DNA of 14,213 bases from a virus (lineage: Duplodnaviria; Heunggongvirae; Uroviricota; Caudoviricetes), in the IMG/VR virus record IMGVR_UViG_2698536549_000018. One strand, given 5' to 3'. Below are positions 851-11,661 of this stretch, piece by piece. Positions within the stretch are counted from its first letter, which is position 1, and each line of letters opens with the position of its first letter. Position numbers and translations under genes: made by a program. The notes beneath the pieces are model-generated. The model had not been told where the DNA came from and ran no database searches. It saw only the letters and a program-made list of their open reading frames with translations.

Positions 851-1576
851 TCAGATAACGTCTGCTTTCTGCAAATATGCATAGCTCTCAGGTGGTGCAC
901 CATAATACTGGTGAAATACAGAAATGAAATAGGACTTACTTGAGTAACCACATTTTTCCGCTATCGCTTGTCCACACTCTCGCTGGAAACATACAAGATT
1001 AACAGCAACACGCATTCGCTCCTCCAGCAACAACCGACTAAAGCTATAACCTTCATCCTTAAGTTTTCGCTTCAACAAGCTTTCGCTCATATGCAATTGT
1101 AATGCAATCACACCTAGCATCCAGCCTGCCGATATGTCGGTCTGAATTATAGCCCTTACTTTACAGCTGATATTATTTACAGCACCGGACAAAAATAATG
1201 GCAGACGCCTGTCTGTTGCAAATAAGGAGATACATGAAAATGCGGTTATAACAGAGAAATCCTTCAAAGTATCACTGGATTCACTATGCTGGGTTATTAA
1301 AGCCTCCGCCAGTTCCGTATTGTAAATATCAGACATCAAATAAAGAGGCATTTTTGTCGGTGTATACTCCGTCAGTTCACACTCCCTTTCCAGATACTGA
1401 TTGACGACGCTGTTACTTATATCTGCCATTTTCACTCTGTCGGCATAAGCACAGAAAAGCCCTCTTATATTTCTGGCAACAAGCATAACACTTCCGGCAT
1501 CGAGTGAAACTTTTTCTTTTTCAAGAAAAATATCTATCGGATAGCGAATCAGGACCACAGAGCAGGCAACATCCAT
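851..1576 (-). CDS. AraC/XylS-family transcriptional regulator (241 aa)
   Basis: C-terminal ~100 aa has the double helix-turn-helix AraC signature (..SESLLKRKLKDEGYSFSRLLLEERMRVAVNL.. and ..IAEKCGYSSKSYFISVFHQYYGAPPESY..). AT-rich with a weak SD, typical of horizontally acquired Rns/AppY/GadX-like regulators. Confidence 0.85.
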   Translation of the reverse strand: MDVACSVVLIRYPIDIFLEKEKVSLDAGSVMLVARNIRGLFCAYADRVKMADISNSVVNQYLERECELTEYTPTKMPLYLMSDIYNTELAEALITQHSESSDTLKDFSVITAFSCISLFATDRRLPLFLSGAVNNISCKVRAIIQTDISAGWMLGVIALQLHMSESLLKRKLKDEGYSFSRLLLEERMRVAVNLVCFQRECGQAIAEKCGYSSKSYFISVFHQYYGAPPESYAYLQKADVI

Positions 1577-2978: not shown

Positions 2979-3055
2979 TGGACCGCCATCGAGGACTCGA
3001 ACCCCGCGCAGCCAGCTTCGAAGGCTGGCGCTCTATCCCGATGAGCTAATGGCGG
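2979..3055 (-). tRNA. tRNA-Arg (anticodon UCG by manual fold)
   Basis: Reverse complement folds as a cloverleaf: acceptor CCGCCAT/ATGGCGG (7 bp), D-arm GCTC..GAGC, anticodon stem CCAGC/GCTGG with loop CTTCGAA, T-arm CGGGG-TTCGAGT-CCTCG, discriminator and encoded CCA. Confidence 0.8.
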
Positions 3056-3064
3056 TATGTGATA

Positions 3065-3139
3065 TGGTGGCCTTGCTGGATTTGAACCAGCGACCTGGCG
3101 ATTATGAGTCGCTCGCTCTCACCACTGAGCTAAAGGGCC
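3065..3139 (-). tRNA. tRNA-Ile2/Met-like (anticodon CAU), ileX-like, with an apparent 1-nt deletion in the 3' acceptor strand
   Basis: Reverse complement GGCCCTTTAGCTCAGTGGTGAGAGCGAGCGACTCATAATCGCCAGGTCGCTGGTTCAAATCCAGCAAGGCCACCA resembles E. coli tRNA-Ile2. Anticodon loop CTCATAA, T-loop TTCAAAT. The 3' acceptor strand reads AAGGCC where AAGGGCC is needed to pair with 5' GGCCCTT. Confidence 0.7.
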
Positions 3140-3258
3140 GGGCGCAGGATAATAACGTTACGAAATAAATGTTGCAAGCATTCAAGAATCACCTGGTTAA
3201 AAATTACCCTTACTTCCTCCACCAGCGCATTCACCATTTCTATCCGAGATAAGTGGCA

Positions 3259-3349: not shown

Positions 3350-4039
3350 TCAATCTACTTTTGCAACACTTTGCTTTGAAAATGCCGCCTTTTGTTTTGA
3401 ACGTGTTCTCATTACAAACAATAAAGCCTCACTATCCAGTCGGTGAAAAATGTGTTTCATTGCAACCCAGTGACGAGTAAATGTTTTGGACCAGTTTTTA
3501 GTTGTCACTCCCGCCAGTAATGCCAGCTCCTGGTATTCATAACCTTCCCCACCAAAAAGTTCTGCTTTTACTGCCTGCGCCGCCAGCCAGATTAATTTTT
3601 TCAGGCGTTCCTGCGTTTTCCCTGCAATTTTTCTGGTACCGGATTGAGTATTAAATTCATTCCACGCCCACTGTGTTATCGCGATCTGATATTCCCAACA
3701 AATACTCCCGCTGTAACTCCACAACAACCAGGCTTTATGATGTTCTTCAAGAGACAGAACAGCCCGCCGCCACGATGATGTCGAAAACTCAACCGGACTG
3801 ACCAGAGGAATTGACGTCCCCTTCGCCAGCGATTGTTTCCCCGGGATTGGTGGATTATCCCGCGTAATCATTTTTCCGGTCACTTCATCTCGGTACCGGA
3901 TTTTTTTACGCCTGTAACGCCCTGTATCGAACATGGCATTCTCCTGCCAGGCTTCAAGCTGACCTTTTGTTGCCCCACTCAAATCAGCGGTGGCGATAAT
4001 GAGCTGCTCACGCACAAACTGTAAATACTGGTTATTCAT
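3350..4039 (-). CDS. Putative late-gene antiterminator Q-like protein (229 aa from the ATG at 4039)
   Basis: Follows rusA with an ATGA start/stop overlap and precedes the tR'-like terminator and tRNAs, the canonical Q position. Trp-rich sequence; no lambda-Q zinc finger seen, so the family is assigned by position only. Confidence 0.55.
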   Translation of the reverse strand: MNNQYLQFVREQLIIATADLSGATKGQLEAWQENAMFDTGRYRRKKIRYRDEVTGKMITRDNPPIPGKQSLAKGTSIPLVSPVEFSTSSWRRAVLSLEEHHKAWLLWSYSGSICWEYQIAITQWAWNEFNTQSGTRKIAGKTQERLKKLIWLAAQAVKAELFGGEGYEYQELALLAGVTTKNWSKTFTRHWVAMKHIFHRLDSEALLFVMRTRSKQKAAFSKQSVAKVD

Positions 4040-4395
4040 GCGCACTCCAGTTCTGTGATTTTTATCCCCAGCCGCCCACCAGGAACGAGCTGACCGCGCA
4101 CAATATTGATTTCATCAAACTGCTCGTCGTCTATAAGTAGTCCGGCATGCGTCAGCGCATCCAGTGGTGCCTTCAGGATATTGTCCAAGTCGCGGCGGCG
4201 CTTATCCGGTGGCTCTGCAATAATCTTTATCGCCAGCCTTCCGGACAGGTTTAATTTCAGCCGCTGCTGGCGAACAATAAGCGCCACATCATGGCGATAA
4301 CGCTTTCCGGCCTCCGAGATGAAATACGTATTGCCATGACGTCGCCAGTAGGTATTCACCGTCGGCGGGTAAGGCAAAACAAACTCTATACACAT
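4036..4395 (-). CDS. rusA: Holliday junction resolvase RusA (119 aa from the ATG)
   Basis: Sequence matches the RusA family (..YRHDVALIVRQQ..PPDKRRRDLDNILKAPLDALTHAGLLIDDEQ..GGRLGIKITE..), including the catalytic D-rich core. SD GGGGG upstream of the ATG at 4395. Confidence 0.85.
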   Translation of the reverse strand: MCIEFVLPYPPTVNTYWRRHGNTYFISEAGKRYRHDVALIVRQQRLKLNLSGRLAIKIIAEPPDKRRRDLDNILKAPLDALTHAGLLIDDEQFDEINIVRGQLVPGGRLGIKITELECA

Positions 4396-4409
4396 CAATA
4401 CCCCCCCTT

Positions 4410-5467
4410 TTACCCAAGCACACCGGTTGCAAAGGCGTGATCAAGAAAACGAAAAATTAAATCAACCTGAGAACCATGCTTTTCTTCGAACGCCAGCGGA
4501 TCCACATGAAGCTCGTTATGATGCTCCCGACACAGCGGTAGCGTGAAAATATCGTGGGCTTTTGTTCCCATTCCCCCCTGACCATGACCAATCAGGTGAT
4601 GCGGATCGTCAGCTGGCTTACCACAACACGCACACGGCTGTGTCTTTACCCAGCGCGTGTATTTCTCATTAACCCAACGGCGATGTTTAGGCCGCTTCAT
4701 AAACGATTCAGGAGACTCCGGATCAACGGCGATACTGACAACCGTTTTTTTCTGTGGTGGATTTTGTTGCTGGTGGACGTGAAGTGGCAGCGCAATATTT
4801 TTTGTGCGCTGCTTCAGTATGCTGATGGCTGTCTGTTCTCCCGGTACGATGTCACTCTCACGGTATACGGAGCGGATTTTTTCCNNNNNNNNNNNNNNNN
4901 NNNNNNNNNNNNNNNNNNNNNNNNNNNNNNNNNNGCATCCACCACCTGATTGCAGGCCGCCCACCAGGATAATTCGGCCAGCGATAACTCCCTCTCCTGC
5001 GTACCGCTTATTGCGTGACGTATAACATCAATCATCCAGACTGCCAGATTCTGCTGAGCAAGTTGATCGAGTGATTCTGATGTCTGGTCGCGCAGCTGGT
5101 TGTCACAGTGCCAGCACAACACCATCGCGCCGGTACCGTAACGATGTATGACTGTTTCACTGTGATGATAGTCACCATGAGGCCACTGGCAGGATTTGAC
5201 ATGACGCAACAGCCAGTCAGACAGTGCGCCAGCGCCGCCAGCAGCACGAATCACCCGCTCATCGCTGAAAAATGGCAGTAATGATTTATCTTCCGCCAGC
5301 GGCTGGCGAACAGCAGGAACAACTCCGGACGGCAGACCGCGCATGCTTTTCGGTTCCGGCTCCACCAGCACTCGAGGGTTATGAAATACCTGCATGGATT
5401 CACGGCCCGGCTTTAGCACCACCAGTCCAAGTTCCGGTACCGGAACAGGTCGAAGCAATACCCGCAC
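4410..5467 (-). CDS. DUF968-like prophage protein (YdfU-like, ~350 aa) with Cys/His-rich HNH-like C-terminal region; interrupted by an assembly gap
   Basis: Two ORF-track pieces (4410-4964 and 4814-5467) are separated only by the N run and are in different frames, consistent with a gap of arbitrary length. C-terminal motif ..CACCGKPADDPHHL..HGQGGMGTKAHD..LPLCREHHNELH... GTG start at 5467 with GGAGG 5 nt upstream. Confidence 0.7.
4885..4934. other. Assembly gap (50 N) inside the DUF968-like gene
   Basis: Run of n characters read directly from the sequence. Confidence 0.99.
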
Positions 5468-5468
5468 G

Positions 5469-5741
5469 TTACCTCCAGATGCGTTGCTGGAATGTGCGGG
5501 ACGGACGCGGTGGGCGTTCGGAATAAGGGAGTCTGACGTAAATTATCCAGAGACGATAATCGAGGCTGAGAGCTTTCTTAATCTCGTATCCGCGTCTGCG
5601 GTAGTTCTGAATCAGCCATTCGGCCTGTTCTTCAGTGCATGGGTTATGCTGGAACCAGTCGGTTTTAAATGCGCGCGAACGCCGCCCGTGCCGGATGGCA
5701 AGGTCGGTATCAGAATTGTGATGTTTGGTATTGTGCGCCAT
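5469..5741 (-). CDS. Hypothetical small basic protein (90 aa from the internal ATG), positionally equivalent to rem in Qin-like prophages
   Basis: The longer 132-aa frame would translate through the hok terminator hairpin, so the ATG at 5741 is preferred. Its TAA stop abuts the GTG start of the DUF968-like gene. Weak SD. Confidence 0.4.
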   Translation of the reverse strand: MAHNTKHHNSDTDLAIRHGRRSRAFKTDWFQHNPCTEEQAEWLIQNYRRRGYEIKKALSLDYRLWIIYVRLPYSERPPRPSRTFQQRIWR

Positions 5742-5810
5742 CGGTTTTCTCTGCTGGCGCAGCAGGTGCCAGTTGTTCAGGCTGGCCTGTGGATTGTAAA
5801 CCAGAATACG

Positions 5811-5845
5811 TAAAACAAAAAACCCGCCGAAGCGGGTTAAGCGCG
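5811..5845 (-). terminator. Intrinsic terminator downstream of hok (AACCCGC-TTCG-GCGGGTT followed by TTTTTTGTTTT on the minus strand)
   Basis: 7-bp stem at 5821-5827/5832-5838 with tetraloop, preceded on the plus strand by a 12-nt A-rich run (T-run on the minus strand). Confidence 0.7.
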
Positions 5846-5907
5846 GGTGCGTTGAGGATGCCGACACATCAGAGGTGGCGGGAGATTACTCTCCCGCCTG
5901 GTCACTC

Positions 5908-6063
5908 TTACTTCTCAGATTCGTAGTCCACGAAGACAGCGACCTCCGTCTGGCCGGTTCGGATTCGTACCTCGCAGAGGTCTTTCCTCGTTACCAGTGC
6001 CGTCACTATGACGGTTAAACAGATGACGATCAGGGCGACTAACATCGCCTTTTGCTGCTTCAT
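5908..6063 (-). CDS. hok: Hok/Gef-family type I toxin (51 aa); in-frame upstream ATG at 6120 gives a 70-codon mok-like frame
   Basis: MKQQKAMLVALIVICLTVIVTALVTRKDLCEVRIRTGQTEVAVFVDYESEK matches the Hok signature (single TM helix, conserved ..RK.LCE.R...G..EVAAF..YES..). GGAG SD upstream of the ATG at 6063; terminator downstream. Confidence 0.85.
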   Translation of the reverse strand: MKQQKAMLVALIVICLTVIVTALVTRKDLCEVRIRTGQTEVAVFVDYESEK

Positions 6064-6274
6064 AGACTGCTTCTCCTTGCCTTTCGGCACGTAAGAGGCT
6101 AACCTACATTTGTGAGACATAGATTGGGCCTCAGATTAATGTTAAGCGTCTTGCAGGACGCGTAATGTTAACTGGGGCTTTTCTCTATCTGCCTTTTGGT
6201 GTTCATGCCTGAGGCAGATAGCCTCAAGCACCCGCAGCAATTCTACTTAACTCTCCTTTTCCCGCAAACCGTTT

Positions 6275-6358
6275 TTATCCCCAACGGCAAATCGAATACA
6301 CCACCAGCACCACCGCCATCGCAATTCCTACCGTTGTGAATGCTTCAGGCCAGGTCAT
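6275..6358 (-). CDS. Candidate 27-aa hydrophobic peptide (MTWPEAFTTVGIAMAVVLVVYSICRWG), translationally coupled to the upstream gene
   Basis: ATG at 6358-6356 overlaps the TGA stop of the 131-aa gene (ATGA). Single predicted TM segment. Below the ORF-track length cutoff; found by manual translation. Confidence 0.3.
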   Translation of the reverse strand: MTWPEAFTTVGIAMAVVLVVYSICRWG

Positions 6359-6750
6359 CGATTCACCTCCTGCTCAATATTTTTAAGGTCATTTTCCGCA
6401 TACAGTATTGCTGTCCTGGCTGCTCGTAACCGGGCTTTGGCGTTTTTCTCTTCACGTTCAAGTTTTGCCACAGCTTCACGAAGAGCATCTCGCTTTGCAT
6501 AGAGTGATTTAATCTCTGATACGATGTTTTCACCGTTTCTCGCACGGTCGAGAACAAGTTCGAACGGATCTAAAGTCAATCCACACCGTTTGCAGGTAAT
6601 CGTACGATTCACTTCTGAAATTGTTGTACGGATATGCTGACAGCATTTTTGCTCGACACTTTTTTCGTCGGTTATCACAACGTTGAGGAGTCCTCCCTCC
6701 TCTGATTTTGGCTGTACCAGGGTGATAACATTGTCGACTTCATTTTTCAT
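6355..6750 (-). CDS. Hypothetical phage protein with C-x2-C...C-x2-C zinc-ribbon-like motif and C-terminal coiled-coil (131 aa)
   Basis: Cysteine pairs (..KCCQH.. and ..CKRCG..) then a charged heptad-like segment (AKRDALREAVAKLEREEKNAKARLRAAR). Start overlaps the previous stop (TGATG). Confidence 0.7.
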   Translation of the reverse strand: MKNEVDNVITLVQPKSEEGGLLNVVITDEKSVEQKCCQHIRTTISEVNRTITCKRCGLTLDPFELVLDRARNGENIVSEIKSLYAKRDALREAVAKLEREEKNAKARLRAARTAILYAENDLKNIEQEVNR

Positions 6751-7115
6751 CAGTTCACCTCCTGCGGTGGTTCCGGTAGCGGCATCCAGTGAGTTGCCTG
6801 CTCAATACCATTACCCGGCTTAATCGTTGCTTCTCCTCGCCGGAATGTGCTTCCTGTATAGCGTGCGGAGCATATTAGCGGTTCAACCAGAGAGCTATCG
6901 AAATTCACCGAAATAAGTACGTTCTGGTTCTTTTCTGGCATTCGCTCACTACAACTTATCCAACCATCCGGAGTTACCGGAGAGTTGCCAGCCTTGCGCA
7001 TGGCAATCTCCACGATTTCAACCATATCTCCTGGCGGGATTTTGCAATGCTGACCAAAGCGCCTCTGCTGTCTGGCATACTCGAGGATGTGCTCCAGTTT
7101 GGTTCGATTAATCAT
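6750..7115 (-). CDS. DUF551-like phage protein (121 aa)
   Basis: C-terminal HWMPLPEPP motif characteristic of DUF551 as recalled. Start overlaps the previous stop (TAATG). Confidence 0.7.
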   Translation of the reverse strand: MINRTKLEHILEYARQQRRFGQHCKIPPGDMVEIVEIAMRKAGNSPVTPDGWISCSERMPEKNQNVLISVNFDSSLVEPLICSARYTGSTFRRGEATIKPGNGIEQATHWMPLPEPPQEVN

Positions 7116-10928: not shown

Positions 10929-11354
10929 TTAGTGCATCACCACGGCATTTCCTGCCGGGCCACCACGGTTCATCTGATTGAAACCGGCAATCGCCACTGC
11001 GACAAAATCATCAGCGTCTCTCACCAGTCGTTCCCGCGTCTCCACCAGCTCCCGAAAATAGGCTGAACTGTGGCTGCGCATTCGGGCCACCAGCAAAGGT
11101 GGCATTGCCTTTTCGATCGCTGGTAACAACGCCTGAATTTTTTCAACAGCATCAAGGGTGTCTTTCTCTACCCAGCGGAAAATTTTCTGGGTATTACGAG
11201 CTAGGGCTTCCGGATGGCTGTCGCCGTACAGTTCCGGAAATGTCATTCCCAGTTCAAAATACGCTTTGGTAATCTTCGCAGTTGGTACTTTCTCGCCATC
11301 CGGATGCGCCCAGGCATTCATCGCCATGCGGATGTGCTCATGGCTGATTTTCAT
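10929..11354 (-). CDS. YdaT-like protein (141 aa), second gene of the Rac-type Cro/YdaS-YdaT module
   Basis: Size and position match Rac YdaT (second gene after the cro-like gene, divergent from the repressor). Overlaps the 3' end of the Cro-like gene by 17 nt. Confidence 0.7.
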   Translation of the reverse strand: MKISHEHIRMAMNAWAHPDGEKVPTAKITKAYFELGMTFPELYGDSHPEALARNTQKIFRWVEKDTLDAVEKIQALLPAIEKAMPPLLVARMRSHSSAYFRELVETRERLVRDADDFVAVAIAGFNQMNRGGPAGNAVVMH

Positions 11355-11661
11355 GAATCATTTGCCTCTTGATATTTCGGGTATGCTCGTTTTCGTCATT
11401 TGGTTGCTTCATCAACATATTCAGCGAATAGCATGACGAGCGTCGTAAGTATGACCAGTCAACATCAGGACGAAGTTCTTCGCACAGAACACCACCTCTT
11501 GTTGCACGTTCAATTGCTGGACATCGCTCAGCAGGCAACTGACGTACACCTTTGATCCATTGATTTACGCTTGGAGGTGATACACCTAAAAGCCTAGCCA
11601 TTGCAGATTGCCCACCGACAACAGCACACGCTCGTTTGAATGAATAGTTCTCTTTTTTCAT
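11338..11661 (-). CDS. Cro/YdaS-like helix-turn-helix regulator (107 aa)
   Basis: HTH signature (..QSAMARLLGVSPPSVNQWIKGVRQLP..). First gene transcribed leftward from the operator region, divergent from the repressor. Confidence 0.75.
   Translation of the reverse strand: MKKENYSFKRACAVVGGQSAMARLLGVSPPSVNQWIKGVRQLPAERCPAIERATRGGVLCEELRPDVDWSYLRRSSCYSLNMLMKQPNDENEHTRNIKRQMIHENQP

Follow-up and report, generated by a model that had tools for sequence, protein, structure and literature searches.

A hok/sok locus and a neighbouring 27-codon open reading frame in a lambdoid Escherichia coli prophage

The 14,213-nucleotide (nt) stretch of viral DNA from IMG/VR record IMGVR_UViG_2698536549_000018, referred to here as the window, carries a hok-type toxin locus and, immediately upstream of it, a 27-codon open reading frame (ORF) encoding a hydrophobic peptide. 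A preliminary description, made from the letters of the sequence, offered two readings of this ORF, namely a second small membrane toxin or simply an unannotated small protein. The locus raises the question of whether the ORF belongs to the toxin system or is a gene in its own right, and of what its product might do. We find that the region very probably holds two independent neighbours in the early-right operon of a prophage: an intact hok/mok/sok locus (5811-6268) and an autonomous 27-codon gene (6275-6358). The coordinates of the individual features are collected in Table 1.

Conservation and contexts of the 27-codon open reading frame

Phage genomes were searched with window positions 6234-6420, of which only the part comprising the Shine-Dalgarno (SD) sequence and the ORF recurs, with 73-80% DNA identity, in phages that have no hok nearby. 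Each of these hok-free copies lies behind an annotated gene, within about 83 nt that carry no annotation, and the translation is always of 27 residues. They include the copies of phage BP-4795 (MNWPEAFTAVGVAIAVAFILYSLFRWG), which is located in the early-left operon near xis and int, of the lytic Vequintavirinae Av-05 and 19-1-2 (MTWPEAFTTVGVVMAVAFAVYSVCRWG) and of PhiR12_2 (MSWPDAIVTLGMVFAAAFVVYSICRWG). The distant copies retain both frame and length at 55-63% amino-acid identity.

Altogether 97 loci were fetched and scanned. Of these, 80 came from IMG/VR, which has at least 531 matches, and eight from species-representative genomes. The motif scan recovered the reading frame in 96 of these loci, and 92 copies have exactly 27 codons; one other has 29 codons, with a 6-nt duplication, and three have lost the stop codon at a mosaic junction. 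The copies represent 39 distinct DNA alleles, 27 of which encode the identical peptide. The mean pairwise pN/pS is 0.22, with pS reaching 0.6, and 30 close alleles show 13 synonymous against five non-synonymous segregating sites (binomial P = 5e-5). A conservation profile built from 58 distinct 260-nt contexts, with one indel allele set aside, delimits a block that corresponds exactly to the SD, the ORF and its stop codon. Conservation in this block is 0.9-1.0, with dips at third codon positions, and it drops to about 0.5 in both flanks; the SD positions -15 to -10 have values of 0.91-1.00, except for -14 (0.53). The ORF is therefore conserved in homologous prophages, and this under purifying selection.

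It could be argued that this block acts at the level of DNA or RNA, for instance as a recombination linker or a translational-coupling spacer, and that the open frame is incidental, since it lies exactly at mosaic junctions, where the three copies mentioned above have lost the stop codon, and almost no database lists the ORF as a gene. We consider this very improbable, given that the substitutions are mostly synonymous, that 27 DNA alleles specify one peptide, and that codon-position periodicity, the retention of frame and length in the distant copies and an SD that is always there all point to a translated sequence.

The ATGA overlap and the translational coupling which had been proposed for the window are supported by the other copies. 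In the window a GGAGG is found 7 nt upstream of the start codon; the overlap is present in 96 of 96 copies, following at least four unrelated upstream genes: the one for the 131-amino-acid (aa) phrog_1621 protein found in the window, whose C-terminus ...NIEQEVNR* precedes the ORF in 14 fetched loci, DUF551/Ea22-type genes, a family ending in ...NGLISVEDILR, and the gene for an EaA-type protein of Vequintavirinae. A programmed frameshift that would fuse the peptide to the upstream protein was also considered. It was rejected, as the sequence lacks a slippery site and the genes upstream have no relation to one another.

The downstream contexts vary as well. The ORF can be followed directly by the hok promoter, by a terminator and then hok, by a terminator and an opposite-strand toxin-antitoxin pair, or by the next early gene. 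In the sampled loci hok was found at most 700 nt downstream in 52 of 91 cases and was missing in the other 39 (about 43%), context frequencies that are biased, because the 80 loci taken from IMG/VR are those most closely related to the query.

From these comparisons the ORF appears to be a genuine, autonomous mini-gene located at mosaic boundaries. It adjoins the hok locus, as had been described, but it is no accessory of hok, being found in many contexts that lack it. Its place beside hok reflects a shared map position in nin-type regions and not a functional unit.

A peptide that works together with Hok or with the upstream gene product, for example by tuning the insertion or timing of Hok or by anchoring Ea22/DUF551-type proteins to the membrane, would account for the frequent adjacency of hok and for the constant coupling to an upstream gene. 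Moreover, a single homology block in phage 933W comprises hok/sok, the ORF and the portion of the upstream gene that encodes the C-terminus, and in one 143-aa database protein (P0042) the peptide continues an upstream coiled-coil protein in frame (...ESNK-MSWPDAFAIAGVAMSIALIVFAICRWG). This protein can be either a real fusion or the result of a lost stop codon. However, the loci without hok include all of the most divergent copies, the upstream genes come from unrelated families, and the fused forms are rare and look like products of frameshift or deletion. Such a partnership is in our view improbable.

The ORF is widely distributed. It was found in 1626 of 5426 complete E. coli genomes (about 30%), at 3096 places and up to seven times per genome, in 92 phage records, lytic Vequintavirinae among them, and in 180 plasmids, which come from E. 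coli, Salmonella and, in one case, Klebsiella. Almost all of these plasmids are non-mobilizable and, among the rows listed, mostly of about 87-130 kb; we suspect that they are phage-plasmids. In species-representative genomes the ORF occurs only in Escherichia and Shigella. The exceptions are three short contigs (369-1780 bp), probably contaminants, in genomes that bear the labels of unrelated genera.

The ORF is hardly ever annotated. It is not listed in the inspected annotations of 933W, VT1-Sakai, the Stx1-converting phage AP005153, BP-4795, Av-05, 19-1-2, PhiR12_2, ArgO145 and RefSeq records. Protein databases hold only a few entries, named "hypothetical" or "DUF551, partial", or consisting of over-extended calls. 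Look-ups with the exact peptide, with a 45-aa over-extended entry and with a 32-aa window translation, the last against 1.84 billion representatives, returned no functional name but only hypothetical, partial or over-extended calls. One sequence cluster suggested a fusion of DUF551 with the peptide; this was rejected as a clustering artefact that runs through partial entries. No homolog of the peptide was found in K-12 in the Qin hokD region or in CPS-53, and a literature search found the peptide string in no paper. A length of 84 nt probably lies below the minimum gene length of common gene callers, so the ORF may be systematically missed.

The hok/sok locus and its relatives

For the neighbouring locus the preliminary description had proposed a Hok-family toxin gene with a strong downstream terminator and a mok-like in-frame extension of 70 codons. 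It had also proposed structured upstream sequence in which a Sok-like antisense gene was expected, with an inverted repeat CTATCTGCC/GGCAGATAG at 6184-6221 and repeated TAATGTTAA motifs at 6135-6175. All of these features were found, with positions off by 1-2 bases at most. The toxin gene matches both Pfam PF01848 and phrog_251 and lies in the same frame as mok (5908-6120), the SD and AUG of which (6132-6118) fall inside the complement of Sok (6112-6186). The stem at 5838-5821 with its T run is the sole terminator-like site within 5700-6500.

Table 1. Location of the features discussed in the text (window positions)
Feature	Position	Strand	Remarks
hok intrinsic terminator	5811-5838	minus	AACCCGC-TTCG-GCGGGTT stem 5838-5821, then T run to about 5811
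hok mRNA	5816-6233	minus	about 418 nt, from putative +1 at 6233 to terminator
fbi element	5845-5857	minus	CCUCAACGCACCC; complementary to tac
hok toxin gene	5908-6063	minus	51 aa; Pfam PF01848 HOK_GEF 81.8 bits (cut-off 22), E 2.6e-23; phrog_251 E 2.5e-32
mok	5908-6120	minus	70 codons, same frame as hok; SD GAGG at 6132-6129
Sok promoter	6077-6105	plus	-35 TTGCCT (6077-6082), 17-nt spacer, -10 TAACCT (6100-6105); same sequence as 933W sokW promoter
Sok RNA	6112-6186	plus	5' single-stranded tail (6112-6125), hairpin 6126-6180, U-rich tail; complementary to mok SD and start codon
First leader hairpin	6185-6221	minus	inverted repeat, arms 6185-6193 and 6213-6221
tac element	6222-6233	minus	GGGUGCUUGAGG; mRNA 5' end; predicted to pair with fbi in full-length RNA, local 5' hairpin once 3' end truncated
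Putative hok promoter	6240-6268	minus	-35 TTTGCG (6268-6263), 17-nt spacer, -10 TAGAAT (6245-6240); placed from Rfam-model start, taken as mRNA 5' end
27-codon ORF	6275-6358	minus	predicted single-pass membrane peptide MTWPEAFTTVGIAMAVVLVVYSICRWG; ATGA overlap: ATG 6358-6356, upstream TGA 6357-6355; unannotated
SD of 27-codon ORF	6366-6370	minus	GGAGG, 7 nt before ATG
Upstream early gene	6355-6750	minus	131 aa, phrog_1621; context, outside hok/sok; last codons hold SD of 27-codon ORF, TGA overlaps its ATG

The -35 box of the putative hok promoter begins 6 nt past the stop codon of the 27-codon ORF. The expectation of a structured upstream region was borne out by the fold of the full-length hok mRNA, with a minimum free energy (MFE) of -172.4 kcal/mol and a z of -6.6 (no shuffle folds equally well), and by a match to Rfam RF01794 at 6061-6233 (model 1-157, full length; 119.7 bits against a gathering score of 59). 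This match lies on the hok-sense strand and runs from GGGUGCUUGAGG to the hok AUG, which indicates that the model describes the hok mRNA leader and not the Sok RNA. Although the family is named "sok antitoxin", its match thus locates the hok leader and neither the Sok gene nor the Sok strand.

In the MFE structure and in a consensus fold of 29 alleles the molecule is closed by pairing of tac (6233-6222) with fbi (5857-5845). As the tac and fbi columns hardly vary, covariation is uninformative on this helix. The three compensatory pairs of the consensus lie outside it (6219/6187, 5894/5881 and 5892/5883), the first one being an A-U to G-C change. When the RNA is truncated in silico to 5860, with the last ~45 nt gone, the 5' end is predicted to refold into a local hairpin and a second hairpin to form around the mok AUG. 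The inverted repeat, one base away from its first description, corresponds to the first hairpin of this leader.

The Sok gene that was expected upstream of hok is identified by its promoter, identical to that of sokW in 933W, and by its predicted fold. The 933W sokW annotation maps onto about 6112-6182 of the plus strand of the window, and the RNA folds with -30.7 kcal/mol (z -5.1) into a 16-nt single-stranded tail, a long hairpin and a U-rich tail. The two TAATGTTAA copies (6137-6145 and 6163-6171) are the arms of the Sok terminator hairpin, which pair through G-U wobbles in the Sok strand; on the hok strand the same positions give C-A mismatches. Primer YO-421 of Takada et al. 2021 (PMC8621323), which we read as the primer for the promoter-less sokW(pro-less) construct, changes TAGGTTAG to CCGGCTCG, exactly at the Sok -10 box.

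Comparison of 31 distinct alleles of the hok transcript showed a single strongly variable stretch, 6110-6127, with column conservation of 0.35-0.8, that comprises the Sok 5' tail and the first mok codons. The other columns are mostly at 0.9-1.0, although the end of the hok coding sequence and the 3' untranslated region (UTR) are somewhat variable, down to about 0.5. A variable Sok tail could give each hok copy a private Sok specificity in genomes with several copies.

The closest described relative is hokW-mokW-sokW of the Stx2 phage 933W and the Sakai prophage Sp5 (GenBank AF125520), with 93% DNA identity over window 5835-6456, a block that takes in all of hok/sok, the 27-codon ORF and, from the upstream gene, the final ~100 nt. 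Hok differs from HokW by the sole change I9V (50/51 identical), Mok is identical to MokW in 65 of 70 residues and in both loci is in frame with hok, and the Sok promoter, the SDs, tac and fbi are identical. The two loci differ in the Sok 5' tail and the first mok codons (MSHKC here, MLNTC in 933W), in the sequence of the terminator and in map position, as the 933W locus has genes L0139-L0142 for neighbours, close to the right-hand end of its record.

HokW was reported to be toxic and to be neutralised by sokW, partly via RNase III and Hfq (PMC8621323). The sokW RNA vanishes on RecA-dependent prophage induction, after which HokW builds up in the inner membrane, and the hokW-sokW locus advances lysis and doubles phage release; the authors left open why Sok is lost on induction. 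The activity of the locus described here is taken from these experiments, by analogy across a one-residue difference, and its anatomy is what is seen in the window.

The K-12 Qin prophage gene hokD (relF) occupies the corresponding place on the map, with DUF968 (ydfU) and Q downstream, and its Hok is identical in 46 of 51 residues. Its 3' UTR is near-identical to the window, fbi and terminator included, but homology begins only at the hok SD, next to relE, whereas the window has a complete regulatory region. K-12 hokD has no mok, sok, tac or promoter because relBE replaced them. The fbi relic and the terminator (locus L102, 4010-4420, against window 5800-6245) are almost unchanged in K-12 despite the loss of the partner tac. 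The gene downstream of hok in the window was considered as rem, an assignment rejected because its product does not resemble K-12 Rem.

Chromosomal hok loci are often inactivated, and the state of K-12 hokD, devoid of mok, sok and tac, might suggest that the copy in the window is likewise a decayed, non-functional relic. With every element intact, with promoter, SDs, tac and fbi unchanged from a functional hokW-sokW and with I9V as the only difference in Hok, we judge this to be highly improbable. From its sequence the locus is best described as the intact form of the truncated K-12 hokD and an ortholog of hokW-sokW; as such it is already known and nothing new. It shows how K-12 hokD looked before relBE displaced its regulatory half.

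In mokC and mokW the reading frame is that of hok, and in plasmid R1 mok is out of frame. The locus shares with R1 hok/sok, the archetype from the Gerdes laboratory, the tac-fbi closure, the tail-plus-hairpin Sok and a leader that contains a Sok promoter of the type TTGC..-17-TA.CCT; the predicted 5' hairpin on 3' truncation would be a further resemblance. The identity between HokW and the R1 Hok is only 44% (PMC8621323). The present setting is a prophage, and the reported role is an aid to lysis and not plasmid maintenance.

The peptide and its possible mode of action

The peptide contains one hydrophobic stretch, residues 6-24, with a best 19-residue Kyte-Doolittle mean of 2.24, and has a net charge of 0. 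The family consensus is M-x-W-P-[ED]-A-x4-G-x3-A-x5-[YF]-S-x-[CF]-R-W-[GW], in which M1, W3, P4, A6, G11, A15, S22, R25 and W26 are invariant. A single transmembrane (TM) helix is predicted, with an invariant GxxxA...S face (G11-xxx-A15...S22).

Profile searches of Pfam, NCBIfam, PADLOC and PDB gave nothing significant, the best NCBIfam match being KdpF at an E of 0.21. Residues 1-23 weakly match positions 33-54 of the 57 in PHROG profile phrog_4612 (E 0.008), which is below the safe threshold; the family behind this profile is probably made up of calls of the same ORF that extend too far, as do the 45-aa entries in the databases. In general design the peptide resembles small single-pass membrane proteins of the KdpF, AcrZ, MgtS and MgrB type, which act by binding larger membrane proteins. 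It shares with them a length below 50 aa, a single TM helix, Trp and Arg at the interface and a conserved helix face of small residues. The resemblance is an analogy only, as there is no sequence similarity and the peptide is phage-encoded. We would rank, with low confidence, a partner-binding membrane peptide above a second toxin.

Type I toxins of similar size are known. A second membrane-damaging toxin or a lysis helper similar to TisB, DinQ, ShoB or Hok, which would depolarise the inner membrane on induction, is suggested by the small size, the hydrophobicity and the single TM helix of the peptide and by its adjacency to hok in the 52 of 91 loci; placed in a repressor-controlled operon, such a toxin would need no antitoxin. 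Several features make this reading unlikely. There is no antisense element, since conservation ends at the SD and the stop codon while synonymous sites are free to vary. Translation, from a strong GGAGG at optimal spacing and with coupling to the upstream gene, is unlike the restricted translation typical of type I toxins. The peptide has no charged tail, its net charge being 0, and the ORF also occurs in lytic phages and phage-sized plasmids that lack hok. With no conserved antisense partner and with unrestricted translation, a type I toxin would lack two defining features of its kind. Of the two readings first offered for the ORF, the unannotated small protein is thus the one supported, and the toxin finds no support.

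The 27-codon ORF is an undescribed member of a broad class of small phage membrane proteins. More specifically, and tentatively, the family might consist of undescribed phage early membrane effectors, with the SD and the ORF forming a mini-cassette that can be attached via ATGA to the 3' end of any accessory gene. Common to temperate lambdoid phages, lytic Vequintavirinae and phage-sized plasmids, such effectors would target a specific host membrane protein in lytic growth; we offer this as a possible but doubtful explanation.

Prophage setting and implications

The window comes from a lambdoid prophage of E. coli, and its best match over positions 5700-6800 is E. coli strain N51 (99.5% identity). 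The minus strand carries, in order, a Cro/YdaS-like gene (11338-11661), replication and nin-type genes, RusA (4036-4398) and the antiterminator Q (3350-4045), followed by two transfer RNA (tRNA) genes; hok/sok is located between the nin-type genes and DUF968/RusA/Q. Since hok/sok and the 27-codon ORF lie between the cro-like gene and Q, they are inside the early-right operon, and silencing by the prophage repressor is expected in the lysogen.

Some other features of the prophage can be mentioned. The DUF968-type gene upstream of RusA is broken by 50 masked bases (N) at 4886-4935. The tRNAs, at 2979-3140 (minus) just downstream of Q, are a tRNA-Arg (anticodon tcg) and one with a CAT anticodon, which is called Met by ARAGORN and Ile in the annotation of the near-identical N51 record. 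Downstream of Q and the tRNAs the small RNA family STnc100 (RF02076) is present in two copies on the minus strand, at 1953-2165 and 1-193, with 172 and 113 bits, the second one being cut off by the window end. There are also two moron-like genes downstream of Q, at 2272-2700 and 851-1576 (minus); their products are a protein of 142 aa that carries a TolA C-terminal domain (E 4.6e-22) and an AraC-type regulator of 241 aa.

For the hok/sok locus, we hypothesize that a stable hok mRNA would be kept untranslatable by the pairing of tac at its 5' end with fbi at its 3' end. Sok, transcribed from its own promoter on the opposite strand, would pair with the mok ribosome-binding site and start codon, blocking the translation of mok and of the hok coupled to it, and the loss of Sok would allow Hok to be made and to damage the inner membrane. 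After induction, antiterminated early transcription may read through the locus in the hok sense, occlude the Sok promoter and titrate Sok, with Hok then aiding lysis. Such read-through would explain an induction-dependent loss of Sok and could be the unexplained trigger for the loss reported by Takada et al.

The 27-codon ORF would be translated from the same repressor-controlled early transcript, by means of its own GGAGG and of termination-reinitiation at the ATGA. Its product is predicted to be a single-pass inner-membrane peptide of 27 residues, oriented N-out/C-in on account of the single Arg 25 and Glu 5. With low confidence we suggest that it may act early in lytic growth, not as a pore-forming toxin but by packing the G11/A15/S22 face against a membrane protein of the host or of the phage.

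Some observations weigh against this picture. As the peptide has no homology to a protein of known function, the action proposed for it is derived from composition alone, and the effect of read-through on Sok is likewise an inference. The simple sigma-70 consensus scan passed neither the hok nor the Sok promoter, and both assignments rest on homology; the same scan, which missed these two, gave no promoter-like site for the 27-codon ORF on either strand. The N51 counterpart of 6275-6358 (locus L002) and the proteins P0030, P0032 and P0034 carry in-frame 6-nt repeat expansions in the TM segment (e.g. ...GIAMAMAMAMAMAVAL...), a microsatellite-like length polymorphism that yields variants of 29 to 35 aa and would rotate the helix face. 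The divergent copy of Shigella phage POCJ13 (locus L099, about 1000-1083) has a nonsense codon at W3 (MT*PEAFAIVVAAISIALIVFAICRWG) and is a pseudogene, in other words a natural knock-out. Finally, neither the peptide nor its DNA is present in the supplements of the Sakai ribosome-profiling study, an absence which is uninformative because the operon is expected to be repressed in lysogens.

The ORF may also have a bearing on published work. The forward cloning primer YO-432 (PMC8621323, Table 2) starts with GAATCA-ATGACCTGGCC and matches window 6344-6363. If, as we suppose, this primer was used for pBAD18-hokW-sokW, the construct included the complete 27-codon ORF but not its SD. The ORF was left intact by the primers with which the same study deleted hokW-sokW. 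Should this reading of YO-432 be true, it represents a caveat, as the hokW-sokW expression clone of Takada et al. started at the start codon of the 27-codon ORF.

The useful result of this analysis is the 27-codon ORF. About 30% of complete E. coli genomes carry it, Shiga-toxin phages included, and purifying selection on it is clear. The ORF is a ready candidate for small-protein work, in which a nonsense codon at W3 would leave the upstream gene intact.

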